Numbered from the stretch's first letter, positions 871 through 50,989 are shown. The stretch is DNA of 64,000 nucleotides from an uncultured Gammaproteobacteria bacterium (GCA_964548885.1 CAZJSQ010000001.1:52782-116781); one strand, 5' to 3'. Program-made: numbers and translations. Notes: a model not told the origin generated them from the letters alone.

Positions 871-2313
871 ATGCCAGATTCCAAACATTTTTACATCACC
901 ACCACCTTGCCTTATATCAATTCCGAACCGCATCTCGGTTTCGCGGCGGAAATCATCAAGGCGGATGTTATCGCCCGTTACCAGCGCCAGCGCGGGAAAA
1001 AGGTCTTTTTTAATACCGGCACGGACGAGCATGGCTTGAAAATTTATCAGAAAGCCCAGGAACTGGGGATGGATATTCAGGCTTACTGCGATGAGTATTC
1101 GGCGAAGTTCCGGCCTTTGAAAGAAAAATTGAATCTGACTTATGATAAATTCATCCGGACGACCGACGCGAGCCATGTCGCCGCCGCTCAAGCGTTCTGG
1201 AAAAAATGCGAGGCCGGCGGAGACATTTATAAAAAATCATACAAGATAAAATATTGCGTCGGCTGCGAGCTGGAAAAGACCGATTCCGATTTGGCGAGCG
1301 GCCGCTGTCCGCTCCACCCGAATCAAGAGCTGGAAATCATCGAGGAAGAGAATTATTTTTTCCGTTTTTCTAAATATCAAGAACCGCTTTTGAAATTATA
1401 TGAAACTAATCCGTCTTTTGTTTTACCGGCCAGCCGCCTGAAAGAAATAAAAACTTTCGTGGCCGGCGGTTTGCAGGATTTTAGCATTTCGCGCTTGAAA
1501 GAGAAGATGCCGCACGGCCTCGCGGTTCCGGGCGACGCGACCCAAGTGATGTATGTCTGGTTTGACGCTTTAGTAAACTATATTTCTACTCTGGGCTGGC
1601 CGAATGAAAAAGAGGATTTTAAAACGTATTGGCCGGGACGGCAAGTTTGCGGCAAGGATAATCTGCGGCCGCAGGCGGCGATGTGGCAGGCGATGCTTTT
1701 ATCGGCCGGTCTGCCTAATTCTCTCCAGGTTTTAGTTTTCGGATTTTTGACGGTCAACGGGCAAAAAATCAGCAAGAGCCTCGGCAACAGCATCAATCCT
1801 TTCGAACTGGTTGATAAATACGGAGCGGACGCGGTTCGTTATTATCTTCTGGCGGAGATTCCGCCCTTTGAAGACGGCGATTACTCGGAGGAGAAATTTA
1901 AGGAGCGCTATAACGCCGATTTGGCCAACGGCCTGGGAAACTTGGCGGCGCGCGTTTCTAATTTGCTGGAAAAGAATGAGATTAAAACTGATTTGAAAGT
2001 TAATCTGAAAGACGCGGGGATTAAGGATATGGTCCGGGATTTTGAGGCGAGTATGTCCGGCTATCGTTTTAACGAGGCTTTGCAGGTGGTCTGGAATAAG
2101 CTTCAGAGTTGCAATGAGATTATCAGCCGTCAAGCGCCTTGGAAAATGACGGACAAGAAAGAGATCGCCGCGGTCTTAAAACCTTTGGCGGCCGTTATCT
2201 TAACCAGCGCTTATCTCTTGGAGCCGTTCATACCGGCGGCGGCGATTAAAATTCAAGAACAGTTTTTGGCGCCGCAAGTTAAGAAGGGTGAAATCCTTTT
2301 TCCGCGGATTTGA
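871..2313 (+). CDS. metG: Methionyl-tRNA synthetase (short form)
   Basis: Class I aaRS with the HIGH-type motif P-HLGF near the N-terminus, the KMSKS-type motif KISKSLGN, and a CxxC-x-CPLH zinc knuckle. Length is 480 aa. Confidence 0.93.
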   Translation: MPDSKHFYITTTLPYINSEPHLGFAAEIIKADVIARYQRQRGKKVFFNTGTDEHGLKIYQKAQELGMDIQAYCDEYSAKFRPLKEKLNLTYDKFIRTTDASHVAAAQAFWKKCEAGGDIYKKSYKIKYCVGCELEKTDSDLASGRCPLHPNQELEIIEEENYFFRFSKYQEPLLKLYETNPSFVLPASRLKEIKTFVAGGLQDFSISRLKEKMPHGLAVPGDATQVMYVWFDALVNYISTLGWPNEKEDFKTYWPGRQVCGKDNLRPQAAMWQAMLLSAGLPNSLQVLVFGFLTVNGQKISKSLGNSINPFELVDKYGADAVRYYLLAEIPPFEDGDYSEEKFKERYNADLANGLGNLAARVSNLLEKNEIKTDLKVNLKDAGIKDMVRDFEASMSGYRFNEALQVVWNKLQSCNEIISRQAPWKMTDKKEIAAVLKPLAAVILTSAYLLEPFIPAAAIKIQEQFLAPQVKKGEILFPRI

Positions 2314-2346
2314 ATATTAAATAATATAATAGAACCGCTGAATCAG

Positions 2347-2370
2347 GCCATTTTTAAAATGGCTATTTTT
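2347..2370 (+). terminator. Palindrome CCATTTT(t)AAAATGG followed by a T-run; weak intrinsic terminator after metG
   Basis: Inverted repeat visible 30 nt after the metG stop, followed by TATTTTTG. Confidence 0.3.
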
Positions 2371-3004
2371 GTATAATTTTGTTAATATAAATTATATGAC
2401 AAATACTACTTATAACGAAATTATTAAAAAATCTCAAGAAAAGATTAAGGGTTTAGCAGTTAAGAATGGTTGGCTATGGTTTTATAATCTTCATCAAAAA
2501 GAAGTGGTAAATTATGCCGAGAAATTGTTAAATATTTATAAAAAAGCTGATTACAAAATTGTTATAATTTCTTGCTGGCTTCACGATATTGCTCATTATT
2601 ACGCTAAAAACGCCAAAGAAATACTAATGGTTAAAGCCAACCATCATATTAAGGGAGCGGAGAGCGCCGAAAAATTTTTAAAAAATTATAAAATTAGCCG
2701 AGAAGAAACTGAAAAAATTAAAAATTGTATTTTGTGTCATCGCAACAAAAAACCATTCATTCCTAAAACCATAGAAGAAAAAATTGTCACCGTGGCTGAT
2801 ACTATGTCTCATTTCGGCAGTATTTTTTATTTCACTTATTTTAAACTTCATCCTGATCATACTTTAGAGCAAATGGTTGCCACTGATTTAAATAAATTAA
2901 AAAGAGATCGCCGGGACATAAAACTTTTGCCCAAAGCACAAAAATTAGTGGAGAAAGAATATAAAATTATAAAAAAATTATTAAATAATTATAATAAGGT
3001 TTAG
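2369..3004 (+). CDS. HD-domain metal-dependent phosphohydrolase (first gene of the AT-rich island)
   Basis: Contains CWLHDIAH (the H..HD motif), downstream HH and a conserved Asp (VADTMSHF). The segment is AT-rich. An alternative start is the ATG at 2396 (MTNTTYNE). Confidence 0.7.
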   Translation: MYNFVNINYMTNTTYNEIIKKSQEKIKGLAVKNGWLWFYNLHQKEVVNYAEKLLNIYKKADYKIVIISCWLHDIAHYYAKNAKEILMVKANHHIKGAESAEKFLKNYKISREETEKIKNCILCHRNKKPFIPKTIEEKIVTVADTMSHFGSIFYFTYFKLHPDHTLEQMVATDLNKLKRDRRDIKLLPKAQKLVEKEYKIIKKLLNNYNKV

Positions 3005-3079
3005 TTAAAGCGCCTTGATTATTTGTTGAATTTTTGTTATTATAGAACCATAATTTATGGAATTTAATTAGGAATATAT

Positions 3080-4342
3080 ATGAATATAATAGACGTAAAT
3101 AAAATACTTAGGCGATATAGCCATTTACCGGCAGTGGCGATTTGGAAGGCAATTATTGTCAATGAAGGCGTTGATAGTTGTTTGAATAAAAAAGATTTTG
3201 AAAAAAAATTTAATAATTATAAGATTAAATACGCCGTTAAAAGCCCCATAAGTTCCGATTATAAAGTGTTAGACCGTTCCGCCGATCAAAGAGTCATTTC
3301 TTCCGAGGTAATAATAAAAGACAATGATAATAATTTATCTTTGCTGAAGTTACGTTATAACCCGCAATCCGTGATAAATTTGGCCATCACGGGAAATAAT
3401 GAAGAAAATATAAAATTTTATATCAAAAATAAGGATAAGAAAGTAATTATTCCCGTCGATATTTCATTTGTAAAAGAGAAAGGCGACTCGGTTGTCAGTT
3501 TATTGGGCAGGGACAGGCTCTCAATAAACTTGTTTGAGGGTTGCTGGAATTGGAATAGCGGCTGCCAATGCAAATTTTGCGATTTAAGCCCGAAAAGAAA
3601 GGATTATCGCAGCGTCGTCCCTTCTTTAAATGATTTAAGACCGCTTGATTTCGATTATGAGCTATGGTGGAATAAATATAAAATGGATTTTTTTAAAAGG
3701 CTTAATAAGTCATTTAAAAAAATGTACAAATTAGCCGAGCCCCACAAACATTTACTGATTATGTCCGGCGGTTTTATCGATAATGACTTTTTATGGAAAA
3801 TGATTATTGAATTAACGGAGGAATTAAATCGGATCATTCCTTTAAAAAAACTGGATAATTATATCAACGTCCCGCCGCCGACAAATAATATAAAAAAACA
3901 CTTTTTAAGATTAAAAAGCTTGGGAATCAAACAGATGCAGATTAATTTAGAAGTGGCCAATAAAAAAAAGTTTGAGAAAACCTGTCCGGGCAAGAATAAA
4001 ACCATCGGCTATGATAATTATCAGAAAGCTTTAAAAGTGGCGGTAACTGTTTTCGGCCGGGGAAAGGTCAGATCAAATTTTGTTTTTACTTCTCACGCCG
4101 CCAAAGAATTGTTAGACGAGGCCAAGCGTTTGGCGAAGTTAGGAGTCATAATGGACTATAGTATCTTTCAGCCCAAAAAAGGGACGCCGTGGTCTGAAAA
4201 GAAGGGCCCGGCCGCCGGTGAGATATTAAGTTTTACCGAAGCGCTCGCCAAAATTTATAAGAAACATAATTTTAGGGGTATTTATTGTAACTTAAGCAGT
4301 CGGTCAAGCATTATAAATGAAGTTTTGAATTATAAAGATTGA
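3080..4342 (+). CDS. Radical-SAM-like Fe-S protein with a non-canonical Cys cluster (hypothetical)
   Basis: A beta-strand-like LSINLFEG is followed by CWNWNSGCQCKFCD (Cx6CxCx2C), a Gly-rich LLIMSGGFID, and GIKQMQINLE. This resembles radical SAM core elements, but the canonical Cx3Cx2C motif is absent. Length is 420 aa and the segment is AT-rich. Confidence 0.4.
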   Translation: MNIIDVNKILRRYSHLPAVAIWKAIIVNEGVDSCLNKKDFEKKFNNYKIKYAVKSPISSDYKVLDRSADQRVISSEVIIKDNDNNLSLLKLRYNPQSVINLAITGNNEENIKFYIKNKDKKVIIPVDISFVKEKGDSVVSLLGRDRLSINLFEGCWNWNSGCQCKFCDLSPKRKDYRSVVPSLNDLRPLDFDYELWWNKYKMDFFKRLNKSFKKMYKLAEPHKHLLIMSGGFIDNDFLWKMIIELTEELNRIIPLKKLDNYINVPPPTNNIKKHFLRLKSLGIKQMQINLEVANKKKFEKTCPGKNKTIGYDNYQKALKVAVTVFGRGKVRSNFVFTSHAAKELLDEAKRLAKLGVIMDYSIFQPKKGTPWSEKKGPAAGEILSFTEALAKIYKKHNFRGIYCNLSSRSSIINEVLNYKD

Positions 4343-4392
4343 AATATTCGATATCGCCGGAAAGCAGAAAAGGCGACAAGCGTCAATAATTT

Positions 4393-5058
4393 ATGAAGAT
4401 TTCCGGAAAAAATAAAAAAATAAAGAATATTAATTTAATTTTACCGAAAAATTTTGTTAATCCGAACCTTAAAAAAAATCGGCATCTTTATTTTTTGTCC
4501 GGTCCGATCAGAGGAGCGGGGGATTGGCAAAAAAACGCCGTTAAAATGCTGGCCGATGAAGATAGGGATTGCTATATTGTTTGTCCTTGCCGTTATTCTA
4601 AACGCCATGAATTATATAATTTTTCATTATCATCAAAATATAAAAAACCATTTGGCGGATCGGGTGTAGCCGCTAAAAAATTCTCCAGTCAGACATTATG
4701 GGAAAGATATTATTTAGAGCTGGCTTCTTATTACGGATCAATTATTTTTTGGCTTCCGCTAGAATGTAAAGATAATCCCCGGCGAAAAAATGACGGCCCT
4801 TACGCCCGAGAGACGCTGGGGGAAATCGGCAGATGGAGCGTAAGAAGCGCCTATAAATTAGGTTTAGGCGCGAATAATAAAAATAAGGAAAAAGTTAACA
4901 TGATTATAGGGATACAAAGAGGTTTCTCCGGCCGGAAGACGATTAAAAGAAATTTGGACGCCGATCATGGAAAAAATTATCCGATTTACGCCTCTTTAAA
5001 GGAAACAATCAATAAAGCAATCAGTCTCGCTAAAAAATCTTCTAAAAATATTAAATAA
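4393..5058 (+). CDS. Nucleoside 2-deoxyribosyltransferase-like (SLOG/NDT-fold) protein
   Basis: An N-terminal Rossmann-like YFLSGPIRGAGDW is followed by NDGPYARETLGEIG, which matches the D-x-G-T-x-x-E-x-G catalytic-Glu motif of the NDT/DNPH1 family. Length is 221 aa. Confidence 0.55.
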   Translation: MKISGKNKKIKNINLILPKNFVNPNLKKNRHLYFLSGPIRGAGDWQKNAVKMLADEDRDCYIVCPCRYSKRHELYNFSLSSKYKKPFGGSGVAAKKFSSQTLWERYYLELASYYGSIIFWLPLECKDNPRRKNDGPYARETLGEIGRWSVRSAYKLGLGANNKNKEKVNMIIGIQRGFSGRKTIKRNLDADHGKNYPIYASLKETINKAISLAKKSSKNIK

Positions 5059-5114
5059 TCTAAATTTTCCAAGATATATTTTTTGGAGAAAAACAGACCT
5101 AAGACATCAAACAT

Positions 5115-6179
5115 ATGAGTTCACTGACAGGCAACAAAATTAATTATCTCACTCATACTCAACTTAATATTATCAAGGAAACTGGCGATTATCTTTTAGT
5201 ATATGATACCAACCATAAGAGAGAGGAATTGCTTGTTATTAGCGACAACCTCGAAGATGCGAAAAAATACCTCGATCTCGGCTGGAAAACTAAAAAAATT
5301 CTTTCCGGGATAATATTCATGGCTCCGGAAATTTGGATAGTTGATTTAGCCGACCCCTTCAAAGTTATAAAAAATGGCGGACTTCAAGAAAACTTGGCGC
5401 TCTATAATACTTTCAAATATTTTCAGAGTAACGATAAAATTTCCAGTTTAATTAATAAGACCTTGCGGAATAATGGGCTAAACGGATTAAAAGTATATTT
5501 ACTTCATGGGACATCTCTGGAAACTGAGATTAGAATGGCCGGTACGGATAAACGCGTTAACGATTTTAAACAATTATTCATTGATACGCTCCGGGAGAGT
5601 AAAGAATTTTTAAAAGAAATAGAACGGATTAAAATTAAATATGGAAAAAAGTGCCGGCGATTAGATCTGACTGAAAAATCCCCAGACAAAGCCGCCTTAA
5701 AGAAATATCAAGATATCTCCGATTATTATTCTTATATAGACCGGGATTTCTGTTTTCCTGATAATATTTATGGTTTATTTAAATTATTACCGGCGGCGGA
5801 TAATATAATTTTAATACCGCATAGCGGATTTAAATTTCTTGATGAAATTACAAAAATATTTGATTTTAAAAAAATTTCATTTTATGAAAGACATTTTAGT
5901 CGGAATGGTAATTTTTGGTTATTTAAAAGGAATTTTAAGAACAAGAAAGTTTTAATCATAGACGTAAGTTATTCCGGGGAAACATTGAATACCGTTTCAG
6001 AGATGATAAGCCGTGAAGGGGGCACCCCGATAAGAATAGCGGTGTGGCCGAAAAGTAAATTAGGTATAGCAAATTTTGAATATATTGTTTTTTTGGATAA
6101 AATAATAAAAACTCAAAATGTCCATACTGCCAATCCCGATTGGTGCGTTAATTTATATGAAAAAATCGCTTTTGAATAG
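5115..6179 (+). CDS. Protein with an uncharacterised ~260-aa N-terminal domain and a C-terminal type I phosphoribosyltransferase (PRTase) domain
   Basis: KKVLIIDVSYSGETLNTVSEMI matches the PRPP-binding motif of type I PRTases (hydrophobic x4, D, then xxTGxT). The stop overlaps the next gene's start by 1 nt. Confidence 0.55.
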   Translation: MSSLTGNKINYLTHTQLNIIKETGDYLLVYDTNHKREELLVISDNLEDAKKYLDLGWKTKKILSGIIFMAPEIWIVDLADPFKVIKNGGLQENLALYNTFKYFQSNDKISSLINKTLRNNGLNGLKVYLLHGTSLETEIRMAGTDKRVNDFKQLFIDTLRESKEFLKEIERIKIKYGKKCRRLDLTEKSPDKAALKKYQDISDYYSYIDRDFCFPDNIYGLFKLLPAADNIILIPHSGFKFLDEITKIFDFKKISFYERHFSRNGNFWLFKRNFKNKKVLIIDVSYSGETLNTVSEMISREGGTPIRIAVWPKSKLGIANFEYIVFLDKIIKTQNVHTANPDWCVNLYEKIAFE

Positions 6180-6751
6180 TGAATAAAAATATGGTTCAAG
6201 ACAATAGAGAGATTGAAATTAAAATTAAAATCACCGATATTGAAGAATTTGAGAAAAAAATATCGGCCCTAAATCCCCAAGTTATTAAGGAGGTTTTTGA
6301 AAGAACCGTACGTTTTGATACTAATAACGGGGATCTTGAAAAAAAAGGAATATTCGTCAGGATAAGATCTGGATCAAAAAACACTTGGACCGTAAAGAAA
6401 AAAATCAATGACGCGGCGCAACCAGATAAATACTTTCAAAGGAATGAATGGGAGGTGGGTATAGATGATTTAGAAACAGCCGGAGAAATGCTTAAAGTTT
6501 TAGGGTTTGAAAAAGAGTTTATTATGGAAAAATACAGAAAAAAATTTATTTTGCCAAAAGCGGAGATAACTATTGATAAGCTGCCATTCGGGACGTATGC
6601 GGAAATTGAGGCCGGTAAAGACGAGATAGATCGTCTTACTAAAATACTGGGGATTGACCAAGCAAGAAGGATAATCGGGACTTATTGGCATCTTCATGAA
6701 GAATATAATAAGATTCATGGTCTGACAGAAAAAAATATTATATTTTTATAA
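6179..6751 (+). CDS. CYTH-domain protein (class IV adenylate cyclase / triphosphate tunnel metalloenzyme family)
   Basis: The N-terminus REIEIKIKI carries the ExExK signature, and downstream acidic residues (EWEV, EIE) are typical of CYTH. The GTG start at 6179 overlaps the upstream stop; the ATG at 6191 is an alternative. Confidence 0.7.
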   Translation: MNKNMVQDNREIEIKIKITDIEEFEKKISALNPQVIKEVFERTVRFDTNNGDLEKKGIFVRIRSGSKNTWTVKKKINDAAQPDKYFQRNEWEVGIDDLETAGEMLKVLGFEKEFIMEKYRKKFILPKAEITIDKLPFGTYAEIEAGKDEIDRLTKILGIDQARRIIGTYWHLHEEYNKIHGLTEKNIIFL

Positions 6752-6827
6752 TAATACAAGGAATTTAATTTATATCACAATTATCTTTTTAGCTATTAAA
6801 TAAAAAGGAAAAAGATAAAAAAACATT

Positions 6828-7361
6828 ATGTCAACTTTTGACATCGTTCTGCTCGTCATTATCGGCGCGTTTGTCGTCAACGGTTTATTTAAGGGCCTAA
6901 TCAAGCTCTTGGGTAATATCGCCGGACTGATTATCGGCGCTTATGTCGCCAGTCATTTTTATCTGAATTTTTACGCTTGGGCGTCAACTTGGGGTTGGTT
7001 GGAAAAATGGGCGACCGATCACGAGAATTTCGCCAAAGTCTTAACCTTCATCGTTCTTTTTGTGCTGGTGGCGAAGCTGACGGCTATCTTATTTCTTATC
7101 ATTGAAAAGATTTTCAAATTTATCGCCGTTATTCCGGGCAGCAAATATATCAATAATCTGCTGGGGGCGGCTCTGGGATTACTGGAAGGATCCTTGTCCA
7201 TCGGGTTGATAATTTACGTCATTTCCCGCTATACTCTAATCAGTAATTTTTTCGGCGAGCAACTGACTAACTCCATCGTCGCGCCGCTCTTGCTAAAAGT
7301 CGTTCATATCATTTTACCGCTCTTGCCGGAAGCCCTGAAAGCGCTGCGAGCGATTATTTAG
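6828..7361 (+). CDS. cvpA: CvpA-family membrane protein (colicin V production protein-like)
   Basis: Four predicted TM helices, and MSTFDIVLLVIIGAFVVNGLFKGLIK matches the CvpA N-terminus. Length is 177 aa. Confidence 0.7.
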   Translation: MSTFDIVLLVIIGAFVVNGLFKGLIKLLGNIAGLIIGAYVASHFYLNFYAWASTWGWLEKWATDHENFAKVLTFIVLFVLVAKLTAILFLIIEKIFKFIAVIPGSKYINNLLGAALGLLEGSLSIGLIIYVISRYTLISNFFGEQLTNSIVAPLLLKVVHIILPLLPEALKALRAII

Positions 7362-49888: not shown

Positions 49889-50989
49889 ATGAAAAAAGTA
49901 ATTTTTCTTATTTTATTATTAGGCGCTTTTTGCGTTAACAATTTGCGAGCGCAAAAATTGCAGGCGCCCTGGTATCTTCCGACGATGAGCCTGGAAGAAG
50001 CCAGGCAGCTTAAGGGCTACGATTGGGTCATAGTCGATCCGGAAATTATCTTCAATAGTAGAGCATCTTTAGATGCTCTGCGCGCGGATAATCCTAATAT
50101 TAAAATCTACTGCTACTTTAATGTGGCAGAATGGTTTTTCCCAATGTGGGATGATAAGCCTTGGTCCAAAAACATTGTCTCTTTCTTAGATAAGAAAGAG
50201 GAATGGTTCCTACACGGTAAAGACGGGAAAAGGTTGAATTTCTGGACGGACGAAAAAACCGGGAAGAAAATGCTGACTATGAATTGTCGCATAGACTGTC
50301 CAAAATTACCGGTCTATTCGATTAACGAAAAAATGAGTTATATCGAATTCATTACCGATCGTTTTGTTCAGGATATTCTTAGAACTTATCCATTTGACGG
50401 CGTATTAATGGATAATCTTTGGTATCGTATTACCTGGTTAGGCAAATACGGAACCAACAAAAGTGGTTTTGACTACGGGTTCATACAAAATAACGATTCA
50501 GTATCGTTGAATCTGCTTTGGAAACAGGGGATGGATTACTGTCTGAATACGCTGAAAAATTTTGGCGGTCCGGACTTTATTCTTGTCGGCAATCCTGGTC
50601 ACTTGAGCTACCCGCAGTGTTCAGGAAAGATGTTTGAAAACTTTCCTGAGATCTATCTAAATAAAAAAGATACGCTCTATGAAGCGTGGTATGAAAATCT
50701 CAACAATGCCGCGACTTTCGCGCCAGGTCCTTGCATCTTCAACGCCCGAGCCGACAATTATTTTTTTACTCTTTGCTCGGCCATGCTTCTTGATAATGTT
50801 TATTTTTCATATTTACAAAATCAAAAATATGAAAGTAAATATAATCTGGAACTGGGCAAGCCGCTGGGGCCCGCGCAAGCAGGTAACAGCATTCATAGCC
50901 GAGTTTACGAGAACGGAACAGTTTTCGTTAATCCTCTATTCGAGAAAGCTTGGATAACCTACAACGACGGACGGGAACGAAAAGAATAA
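49889..50989 (+). CDS. Secreted hypothetical protein, possibly a glycoside-hydrolase-like TIM barrel
   Basis: Signal peptide (LLLGAFCVNNLRAQ) and a Trp/Tyr-rich 366-aa protein. The GH-like call is weak and from memory of DUF4015-type proteins. Confidence 0.45.
   Translation: MKKVIFLILLLGAFCVNNLRAQKLQAPWYLPTMSLEEARQLKGYDWVIVDPEIIFNSRASLDALRADNPNIKIYCYFNVAEWFFPMWDDKPWSKNIVSFLDKKEEWFLHGKDGKRLNFWTDEKTGKKMLTMNCRIDCPKLPVYSINEKMSYIEFITDRFVQDILRTYPFDGVLMDNLWYRITWLGKYGTNKSGFDYGFIQNNDSVSLNLLWKQGMDYCLNTLKNFGGPDFILVGNPGHLSYPQCSGKMFENFPEIYLNKKDTLYEAWYENLNNAATFAPGPCIFNARADNYFFTLCSAMLLDNVYFSYLQNQKYESKYNLELGKPLGPAQAGNSIHSRVYENGTVFVNPLFEKAWITYNDGRERKE

Follow-up and report, generated by a model that had tools for sequence, protein, structure and literature searches.

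A horizontally acquired radical-SAM, PRTase-like and CYTH gene cassette between metG and cvpA is a candidate mobile nucleotide-tailoring pathway

The DNA analyzed here, referred to as the window, is a 64,000-nt stretch from an uncultured Gammaproteobacteria bacterium (GCA_964548885.1 CAZJSQ010000001.1:52782-116781) in which five genes on the same (+) strand lie between metG and cvpA. In order, they encode an HD-domain protein, a variant radical S-adenosylmethionine (rSAM) enzyme, a nucleoside 2-deoxyribosyltransferase (NDT)-like protein, a phosphoribosyltransferase (PRTase)-like protein and a CYTH enzyme (Table 1). We show that this cassette is an insertion and that three of its genes, the rSAM, PRTase-like and CYTH genes (the triad), are a conserved unit that is rare and mobile; the company they keep points to chemistry on nucleotides. 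An initial annotation, made from the sequence, had already placed five co-directional genes here, with gaps of 75, 50 and 56 nt that proved exact. Its last gap, given as 0 nt, is a 1-nt overlap between the PRTase-like and CYTH genes if translation of the CYTH gene starts at GTG 6179, and an 11-nt gap if it starts at ATG 6191, as in the public gene calls, which begin the HD gene at ATG 2396 and thus give the 202-aa form.

Table 1. Features of the metG-cvpA interval, in window positions, and Gre-like genes at related loci, in positions of the locus named (aa, amino acids)
Feature	Position	Strand	Evidence and remarks
metG, housekeeping gene	871..2313	+	PF09334, 1.2e-94; upstream flank, outside cassette
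Inserted block, ~4.5 kb	2314..6827	+	Occupies place of the 12-40 nt metG-cvpA spacer of relatives
Terminator-like hairpin followed by T-run	2346..2364	+	Between metG stop and first cassette gene; consensus scan, pattern match only
HD-domain phosphohydrolase, 202 aa	2396..3004	+	PF01966, 6.9e-10; variable accessory; alternative TTG start 2369 gives 211 aa
Variant rSAM enzyme, 420 aa	3080..4342	+	NF045502; core gene
NDT-like protein (PF15891-type), 221 aa	4393..5058	+	Homologue and profile matches; variable accessory
Two-part PRTase-like protein, 354 aa	5115..6179	+	C-terminal domain like type I phosphoribosyltransferase; core gene
CYTH (triphosphate tunnel) enzyme, 186 aa	6191..6751	+	PF01928, 8.3e-18; core gene; GTG start 6179 gives 190 aa
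cvpA, housekeeping gene	6828..7361	+	PF02674, 6.4e-19; downstream flank, outside cassette
Gre-like gene	L001:11660-12304	-
Gre-like gene	L009:2489-2965
Gre-like gene	L011:617-1201
Gre-like gene	L012:11860-12435	-
Gre-like gene (L017/L123)	L017:11673-12146
Gre-like gene	L036:9716-10180	-
Gre-like gene	L122:11692-12201	-

The base composition of the cassette sets it apart from the rest of the window, as the initial annotation had estimated by eye. GC content of positions 2340-6760 is 33.1%, against 44.6% in the remainder, and is the minimum among all 4.4-kb segments of the 64 kb (mean 43.8%, standard deviation [sd] 2.7%; about -4 sd), and the GC profile across the region is accordingly far from flat. 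GC at third codon positions (GC3) is 0.25-0.40 in the five cassette genes and 0.524 +/- 0.038 (minimum 0.444) in the 32 other genes of the window, among which the gene at 49889-50989 has the lowest GC (40.4%; GC3 0.444). Neither an integrase nor any border repeat beyond short AT-rich chance matches was found at the insertion borders, and no tRNA is present anywhere in the 64 kb, in agreement with the earlier description. Rfam families gave no match in the window, nor in the cassette at a permissive threshold.

Searching metagenomes with MetG recovered 80 related contigs, none of which encodes any of the five cassette genes. About 40 of them, with MetG 60-86% identical, retain the gene order rsmI-metG-cvpA-sua5-S41 protease-pyrG and have metG and cvpA separated by 12-40 nt; in the closest relative, L038, the spacer reads 'atatttaatttt' at the place where the window has its ~4.5 kb. 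Because about 40 relatives keep metG and cvpA adjacent without the cassette genes, the block is an insertion, as the composition also indicates, and the horizontal acquisition that had been proposed on composition and codon usage is supported. A few other relatives carry different cargo in the same spacer, chiefly pilin-like genes, including type IV pilin-like and surface proteins (L062:6894-7961, L066:4018-5424, L069:6169-7728 and L081:5632-7059), and the metG-cvpA site is therefore one that tolerates insertions and acts as a recurrent insertion point. A separate insertion occupies the rsmI-metG interval of L073 (1187-5404); its genes, labeled by reading of the sequence only, are NUDIX, deoxynucleoside-kinase-like, flavodoxin-like and SET-like, with an apparent HigB/HigA-type toxin-antitoxin pair.

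The window rSAM scores 137 bits against the NCBIfam model NF045502 'variant_rSAM' (cut-off 125), and this match to a curated model, together with a (beta/alpha) barrel fold, places it in the rSAM superfamily. An N-terminal beta-rich domain (about residues 1-150), for which a fold search found no structural match, precedes a TIM barrel of the LipA/BioB/HydG type. The canonical CxxxCxxC spacing is absent, and PF04055 gives only 16.7 bits (cut-off 29.5); the cysteine motif is C155-x8-C164-x2-C167 (Cx8CxxC) and is invariant across 76 homologues. The family also conserves H222, H224, C302, C403 and a C-terminal SSRSS motif (protein residues 222-224, 302 and 403-410). This motif recalls the RSSY serine ligand of the LipA auxiliary cluster and, by analogy, the enzyme possibly holds an auxiliary cluster as well. 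Invariant Lys and Arg residues are numerous in both the rSAM and the CYTH proteins and would fit a phosphorylated substrate. The nearest annotated sequence relative is the MSMEG_0568-family radical SAM (TIGR04043), matched at 1.5e-15 over the C-terminal third, whose gene neighborhood is unlike that of the cassette; this family is itself uncharacterized, and no paper was found under that name. Its copies on Acetobacteraceae and Klebsiella plasmids, 20-25% identical to the window rSAM, were the only plasmid relatives of the cassette found, and these are distant. The cassette rSAM belongs to a family without any characterized member, and public records name the cassette proteins 'hypothetical', 'radical SAM protein' or 'phosphoribosyltransferase'.

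The PRTase-like protein begins with a region (about residues 1-210) that matches no solved structure and ends with a C-terminal domain in which the PRTase-type ribose-5-phosphate loop is kept. As a single sequence, this domain reaches only 17 bits against the Pfam PRTase model, below threshold; a profile match to PRTases in the PDB (1.2e-4) and fold comparison support the assignment. A profile search among 1.84 billion representative proteins found 123 clusters (50% identity) of the PRTase-like family, 61 of them at E <= 1e-30 and nearly all sharing one architecture, and a second homologue search with the PRTase-like profile gained a single additional sequence. A variant in Paenibacillus (L018:7968-10415 and L033:4768-8636) combines an rSAM gene with a thymidylate-kinase-like gene and a homologue of the N-terminal domain alone (hhalign E 5e-5), and has no CYTH gene. 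Because the Paenibacillus rSAM pairs with an N-domain-only homologue, the comparison suggests that the N-terminal domain, rather than the PRTase domain, may be the obligate partner of the rSAM. The third core protein is a clear CYTH member (PF01928, 65.3 bits; cut-off 23.2). It matches the cyaB model TIGR00318 at 51 bits, just below the cut-off, and among solved structures the Yersinia class IV adenylyl cyclase comes closest (1e-6). The protein carries the ExExK motif as EIEIK, and K11, R57, K69, K114, R116 and E138 are invariant in 20 homologues. Sequence similarity within CYTH does not tell cyclases from triphosphatases.

The two remaining proteins are assigned with different kinds of evidence. 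The HD protein matches PF01966 at 39.7 bits (cut-off 22), with further HDIG and YedJ-like matches. The 221-aa protein has no direct Pfam match and is classed as NDT-like through its relatives: the L013 homologue (phmmer 5e-18) reaches 36.4 bits against PF15891 (cut-off 30), a five-sequence family profile matches PDB 4mcj at 9e-5, and the public record of the L123 homologue lists PF15891, weakly. All five domain calls of the initial annotation are thus supported, the HD and CYTH calls by Pfam, the rSAM call by NF045502, the probable PRTase-like identity by profile and fold, and the probable NDT-like identity by the L013 homologue and the 4mcj match.

A scan of one genome per species identified 27 loci that encode a relative of the window rSAM. 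At about 23 of these, the triad genes are adjacent and on the same strand, the PRTase-like and CYTH genes following the rSAM gene, and the PRTase-like protein is always paired with the rSAM in cassette loci. The hosts are Patescibacteria (including Paceibacterota), Berkelbacteria, Clostridia, Bacilli, Gammaproteobacteria, Muribaculaceae (Bacteroidota) and one Nanoarchaeota archaeon, spanning at least seven phylum-level groups, and the triad was also found in further metagenome loci. The earlier proposal of a five-gene unit thus holds insofar as the genes co-occur elsewhere and fails insofar as only the triad is conserved. The HD and NDT-like genes are variable accessories, an HD gene adjoining the triad only in L015, L017 and L028, and NDT-like homologues lying beside it in L001, L011, L013 and L017; NUDIX, nucleoside hydrolase or nucleoside monophosphate (NMP) kinase genes take their place at other loci. 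In most Firmicutes loci, the fourth gene encodes a NUDIX hydrolase, sometimes fused to the rSAM, and in L012 an inosine-uridine nucleoside hydrolase gene lies between the PRTase-like and CYTH genes.

We took a census of the 146 genes within 3 kb of the triad at 28 loci. NUDIX genes were the most frequent (17), followed by cytidylate kinase (7), the Gre-factor C-terminal domain (7), a second rSAM (5), serine recombinase (4), LysR regulator (4), an extra CYTH (4), guanylate kinase (3) and AAA_28/thymidylate-kinase-like genes (3-5). As predicted from their families, the recurrent neighbors would all act on free nucleotides: NMP kinases would phosphorylate them; HD, NUDIX and HAD proteins would dephosphorylate them; and PRTase-like, NDT-like and nucleoside hydrolase proteins would make or break the N-glycosidic bond. 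The five second rSAMs lie directly beside the triad in Firmicutes loci and match the PADLOC models for prokaryotic viperins (pVip; best 9e-45), and kinases beside the triad match the PADLOC pVip-kinase models. In NCBIfam, one second rSAM is viperin-like (5e-42) and another MoaA-like (8e-41), both under the equivalog cut-offs. Enzymes of the viperin and MoaA types act on nucleoside triphosphates (NTPs).

At seven distinct loci, most of them from candidate phyla, a Gre-factor-like gene (PF01272, 154-214 aa) directly adjoins the triad, and it does so on either side and in either orientation while the remaining neighbors vary. Gre factors enter the secondary channel of RNA polymerase and stimulate removal of the 3' end of the transcript. 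As read from the sequences, the cassette-linked proteins share a [ST]-[WY]-H-D-[NE] motif where GreA has its catalytic acidic coiled-coil tip. Such a neighbor would be compatible with self-protection from an analogue that terminates chains; the alternative would be a regulatory nucleotide working together with a secondary-channel factor. No Gre-like gene is present in the window, in the 80 metG loci or in the Firmicutes loci, and because the window has none, the link concerns the cassette family and not directly the window locus.

Several observations bear on the mobility of the cassette. Serine recombinases lie near it in four loci, and in 15 of 18 loci it has a lower GC content than its flanks, with a difference of 8-12 points in four of them, the window included. 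An element of gut Clostridia, found in many samples (L119:3077-12081; also L120 and L121), carries the cassette inside a split Zip transporter gene; between the Zip halves lie a serine recombinase, a CYTH gene, a viperin-like rSAM, a LysR fragment, the triad and a NUDIX gene. Of these three copies, two have a frameshift in the PRTase-like gene and two a truncated NUDIX gene. Compared with L001, the window rSAM is 70% identical and the NDT-like protein 60%, and the PRTase-like protein only 27%; compared with L036, the PRTase-like protein is 72% identical and the CYTH protein 69%, and the rSAM only 38%. This pairing of L001-like rSAM and NDT-like genes with L036-like PRTase-like and CYTH genes implies that the window cassette (3080-6751) is a mosaic, probably formed by recombination between cassette lineages. 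No relatives of the cassette were found in IMG/VR viral contigs or phage genomes, a result that is neutral for a defense role. A phage origin was rejected, the sole match in the phage collection being an unverified, bacterial-looking contig with a different rSAM family and no partner genes.

The initial annotation did not recognize this combination of genes, and we found no description of the cassette in PADLOC, Pfam, NCBIfam or the literature (radical SAM, CYTH, PRTase, Nudix, kinase, anti-phage). Housekeeping pathways that could have claimed the genes, namely queuosine, thiamin (including its salvage) and molybdopterin, were rejected, as hidden Markov model searches returned no equivalog-level match (QueE, QueC, Tgt, ThiC, ThiE, MoaA and similar). 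Among known systems, pVip with nucleotide kinases shares with the cassette an rSAM, NMP kinases, sporadic mobile loci and NTPs as likely substrates; it differs in that the window rSAM fails every viperin-model test. Ophion, composed of the rSAM OpnA, the PHP protein OpnB and the PRTase OpnC, blocks jumbo phages and requires residues of both its rSAM and its PRTase (bioRxiv 10.1101/2025.09.30.679545). The three-part logic of an rSAM, a PRTase-domain protein of ~350-375 aa and a metal-dependent phosphoesterase is similar, but the third component of our cassette is CYTH and not PHP, no PHP gene is present in the window cassette, and the host range differs. With the OphA and OphC sequences of Table S1 of bioRxiv 10.1101/2025.09.30.679545, hhalign gave E 0.63 for the PRTase-like profile against OphC and E 0.064 for the rSAM profile against OphA, the latter over the Cys motif only. 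Because no homology to OphA or OphC was detected, the resemblance is best read as convergent architecture and not as membership.

Defense systems with PRTase effectors (ShosT, type III retron, PsyrT) are more distant, ShosT being a weak, low-ranking match and the cassette lacking a toxin-antitoxin arrangement. In the biosynthesis of deazapurine antibiotics (tubercidin and toyocamycin; TubE/TubG and ToyH/ToyI), a QueE-type rSAM makes or modifies the base, a PRTase attaches it using phosphoribosyl pyrophosphate (PRPP), and a Nudix or HAD phosphatase trims the product. The cassette follows a similar scheme of rSAM, PRTase and phosphohydrolase, but the FolE, QueD, QueC and QueE genes of that pathway are absent from it.

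We interpret the cassette as a horizontally acquired, mobile nucleotide-tailoring pathway that most likely yields a nucleotide or nucleoside analogue for use in conflict, whether antiviral, as in viperin or Ophion, or secreted as an antimetabolite, and we put the probability of this interpretation at about one half. The triad would be the engine of the pathway, because the recurrent neighbors are predicted to act on free nucleotides, the partner rSAMs in Firmicutes are of viperin and MoaA type, and invariant Lys and Arg abound in both the rSAM and the CYTH protein. From these observations we infer a substrate, an order of steps, a product and a biological role. The PRTase-like protein would hold or build a phosphorylated ribosyl substrate (an NTP or NMP, or PRPP plus a base), the rSAM would modify this substrate by radical chemistry, and the CYTH enzyme would process the triphosphate, by hydrolysis or by cyclization. 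Accessories would tune the phosphorylation state (HD in the window, NUDIX or NMP kinases elsewhere) and the N-glycosidic bond (the NDT-like protein in the window, the nucleoside hydrolase in L012). The sporadic cross-domain distribution, mobility, decay, absence from close relatives and viperin-type linkage point to a conflict function rather than core metabolism.

Several observations weigh against this interpretation. In the PADLOC 2.0 defense models, none of the five proteins finds a match, save marginal hits of the HD protein to Cas3-HD (0.0036) and Cas11f (0.0019), and besides the pVip adjacency only scattered weak matches to defense models occur among the neighbors, large neighboring proteins included. 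The genes around the cassette in the window are housekeeping genes. By fold comparison, the rSAM is nearest to sulfur-inserting and amino-acid-cleaving (lyase) enzymes and not to the rSAMs known to act on nucleotides. The ribose-5-phosphate loop of the PRTase-like protein keeps only one of the two acidic residues that usually precede xxx-T/S-G-x-T in type I PRTases, a degenerate motif in a domain that is sub-threshold in Pfam, and this domain may bind rather than catalyze. Finally, the LysR regulators adjoin the cassette in Firmicutes loci, which suggests the metabolite-responsive regulation typical of metabolism. An Rfam scan of nine Firmicutes loci for a riboswitch that might give a clue to the ligand returned nothing save one group II intron.

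If the cassette is a nucleotide-tailoring pathway, its interest lies in the fact that both natural antiviral chain terminators and new enzymology come from nucleotide-rewriting rSAMs (viperin and probably Ophion). The cassette would be a third, non-homologous solution built from the same parts list, with a CYTH enzyme in a new role, and its product, once identified, could be a new nucleoside analogue. The cassette moves across the divide between bacteria and archaea, reaching ultra-small Patescibacteria and DPANN archaea, groups with a poorly known defense and chemical ecology, and the recurrent Gre-factor neighbor suggests a mechanism of self-immunity at RNA polymerase. We speculate, more tentatively and as a possibility rather than an expectation, that the triad represents a previously unrecognized class of rSAM nucleotide-analogue synthase. 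Here, a LipA/BioB-like enzyme would perform new chemistry (e.g., sulfur insertion or a change of the carbon skeleton) on a ribonucleotide held by the PRTase-derived partner, the product would poison viral or competitor polymerases, and the Gre-like factors of the candidate-phyla loci would, by excising the analogue, protect the RNA polymerase of the host.

The same parts could instead serve salvage or detoxification, an accessory module by which nucleotide-auxotrophic bacteria with reduced genomes reclaim bases and ribose phosphate from a nucleotide that is unusual or damaged. Breakdown would then fall to the NDT-like, HD or NUDIX proteins, rebuilding to the PRTase-like protein, repair or demodification to the rSAM, and removal of the triphosphate to the CYTH protein. 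HD, NUDIX, NDT-like, nucleoside hydrolase, PRTase and NMP kinase proteins are indeed classic salvage activities, many hosts are Patescibacteria or DPANN archaea, and the LysR regulators and the housekeeping surroundings in the window are compatible with such a function. We nevertheless consider it unlikely, given that the cassette is missing at this locus from every one of the ~40 closest relatives and also from the whole set of 80 related contigs, is very rare overall, mobile and sometimes pseudogenized, and includes no protein that reaches the equivalog model of a known salvage enzyme; linkage to viperin-like rSAMs would also be unexpected.

A signaling system, in which CYTH acts as a class-IV-type cyclase and the rSAM/PRTase-like pair makes or modifies a regulatory nucleotide that acts on RNA polymerase through the Gre-like protein, would account for the class IV adenylyl cyclases nearest to CYTH in structure, for the cyaB score just under cut-off and for the Gre-like genes with their unusual tip beside the triad in seven loci. 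We regard it as quite improbable: the Gre-like gene is missing from the window and the Firmicutes loci, no receptor or effector gene is conserved across loci, CYTH sequences do not distinguish cyclases from triphosphatases, and the Gre link is equally compatible with self-protection of RNA polymerase against a chain-terminating analogue. Highly doubtful, too, is a role in RNA or tRNA modification or cofactor building, with the rSAM acting on a macromolecule or cofactor precursor, the PRTase-like protein as an RNA- or nucleotide-binding subunit (as PyrR), CYTH as a 5'-triphosphatase of RNA and NUDIX in decapping. In favor of this role, RNA triphosphatases occur within CYTH and RNA-binding proteins within the PRTase fold, the best NCBIfam matches of the NUDIX accessory include RNA pyrophosphohydrolases, the fold neighbors LipA and BioB build cofactors, and the cassette lies near metG and sua5 in the window and near trmD in L001. 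Against it, these translation-related neighbors differ between loci, free nucleotides are what the NMP kinases and N-glycosidases imply, the solved structure closest to the NUDIX domain is that of an ADP-sugar pyrophosphatase, and a sporadic mobile distribution is atypical of a core RNA-modification or cofactor pathway.

Two observations on related loci are recorded here in their own right. The NUDIX accessory (L016:9275-10117 and 14 other loci) has its NUDIX domain inserted in a fragment that derives from the LeuRS CP1/editing region, namely its C-terminal portion; in the L016 protein, residues 65-92 and 247-277 align with consecutive segments of Aquifex LeuRS (PDB 3pz5), and the closest solved relative of its core is the ADP-sugar pyrophosphatase NUDT5. 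In Lacrimispora (L005:11491-16150), where the rSAM of the triad is a fusion with NUDIX, the genes after the triad encode a divergent member of the thymidylate synthase family, an APH-type kinase, an alpha/beta hydrolase and a GT2 glycosyltransferase, a set that resembles a nucleoside natural-product cluster. On the upstream side are a group II intron (RF00029) and a serine recombinase.

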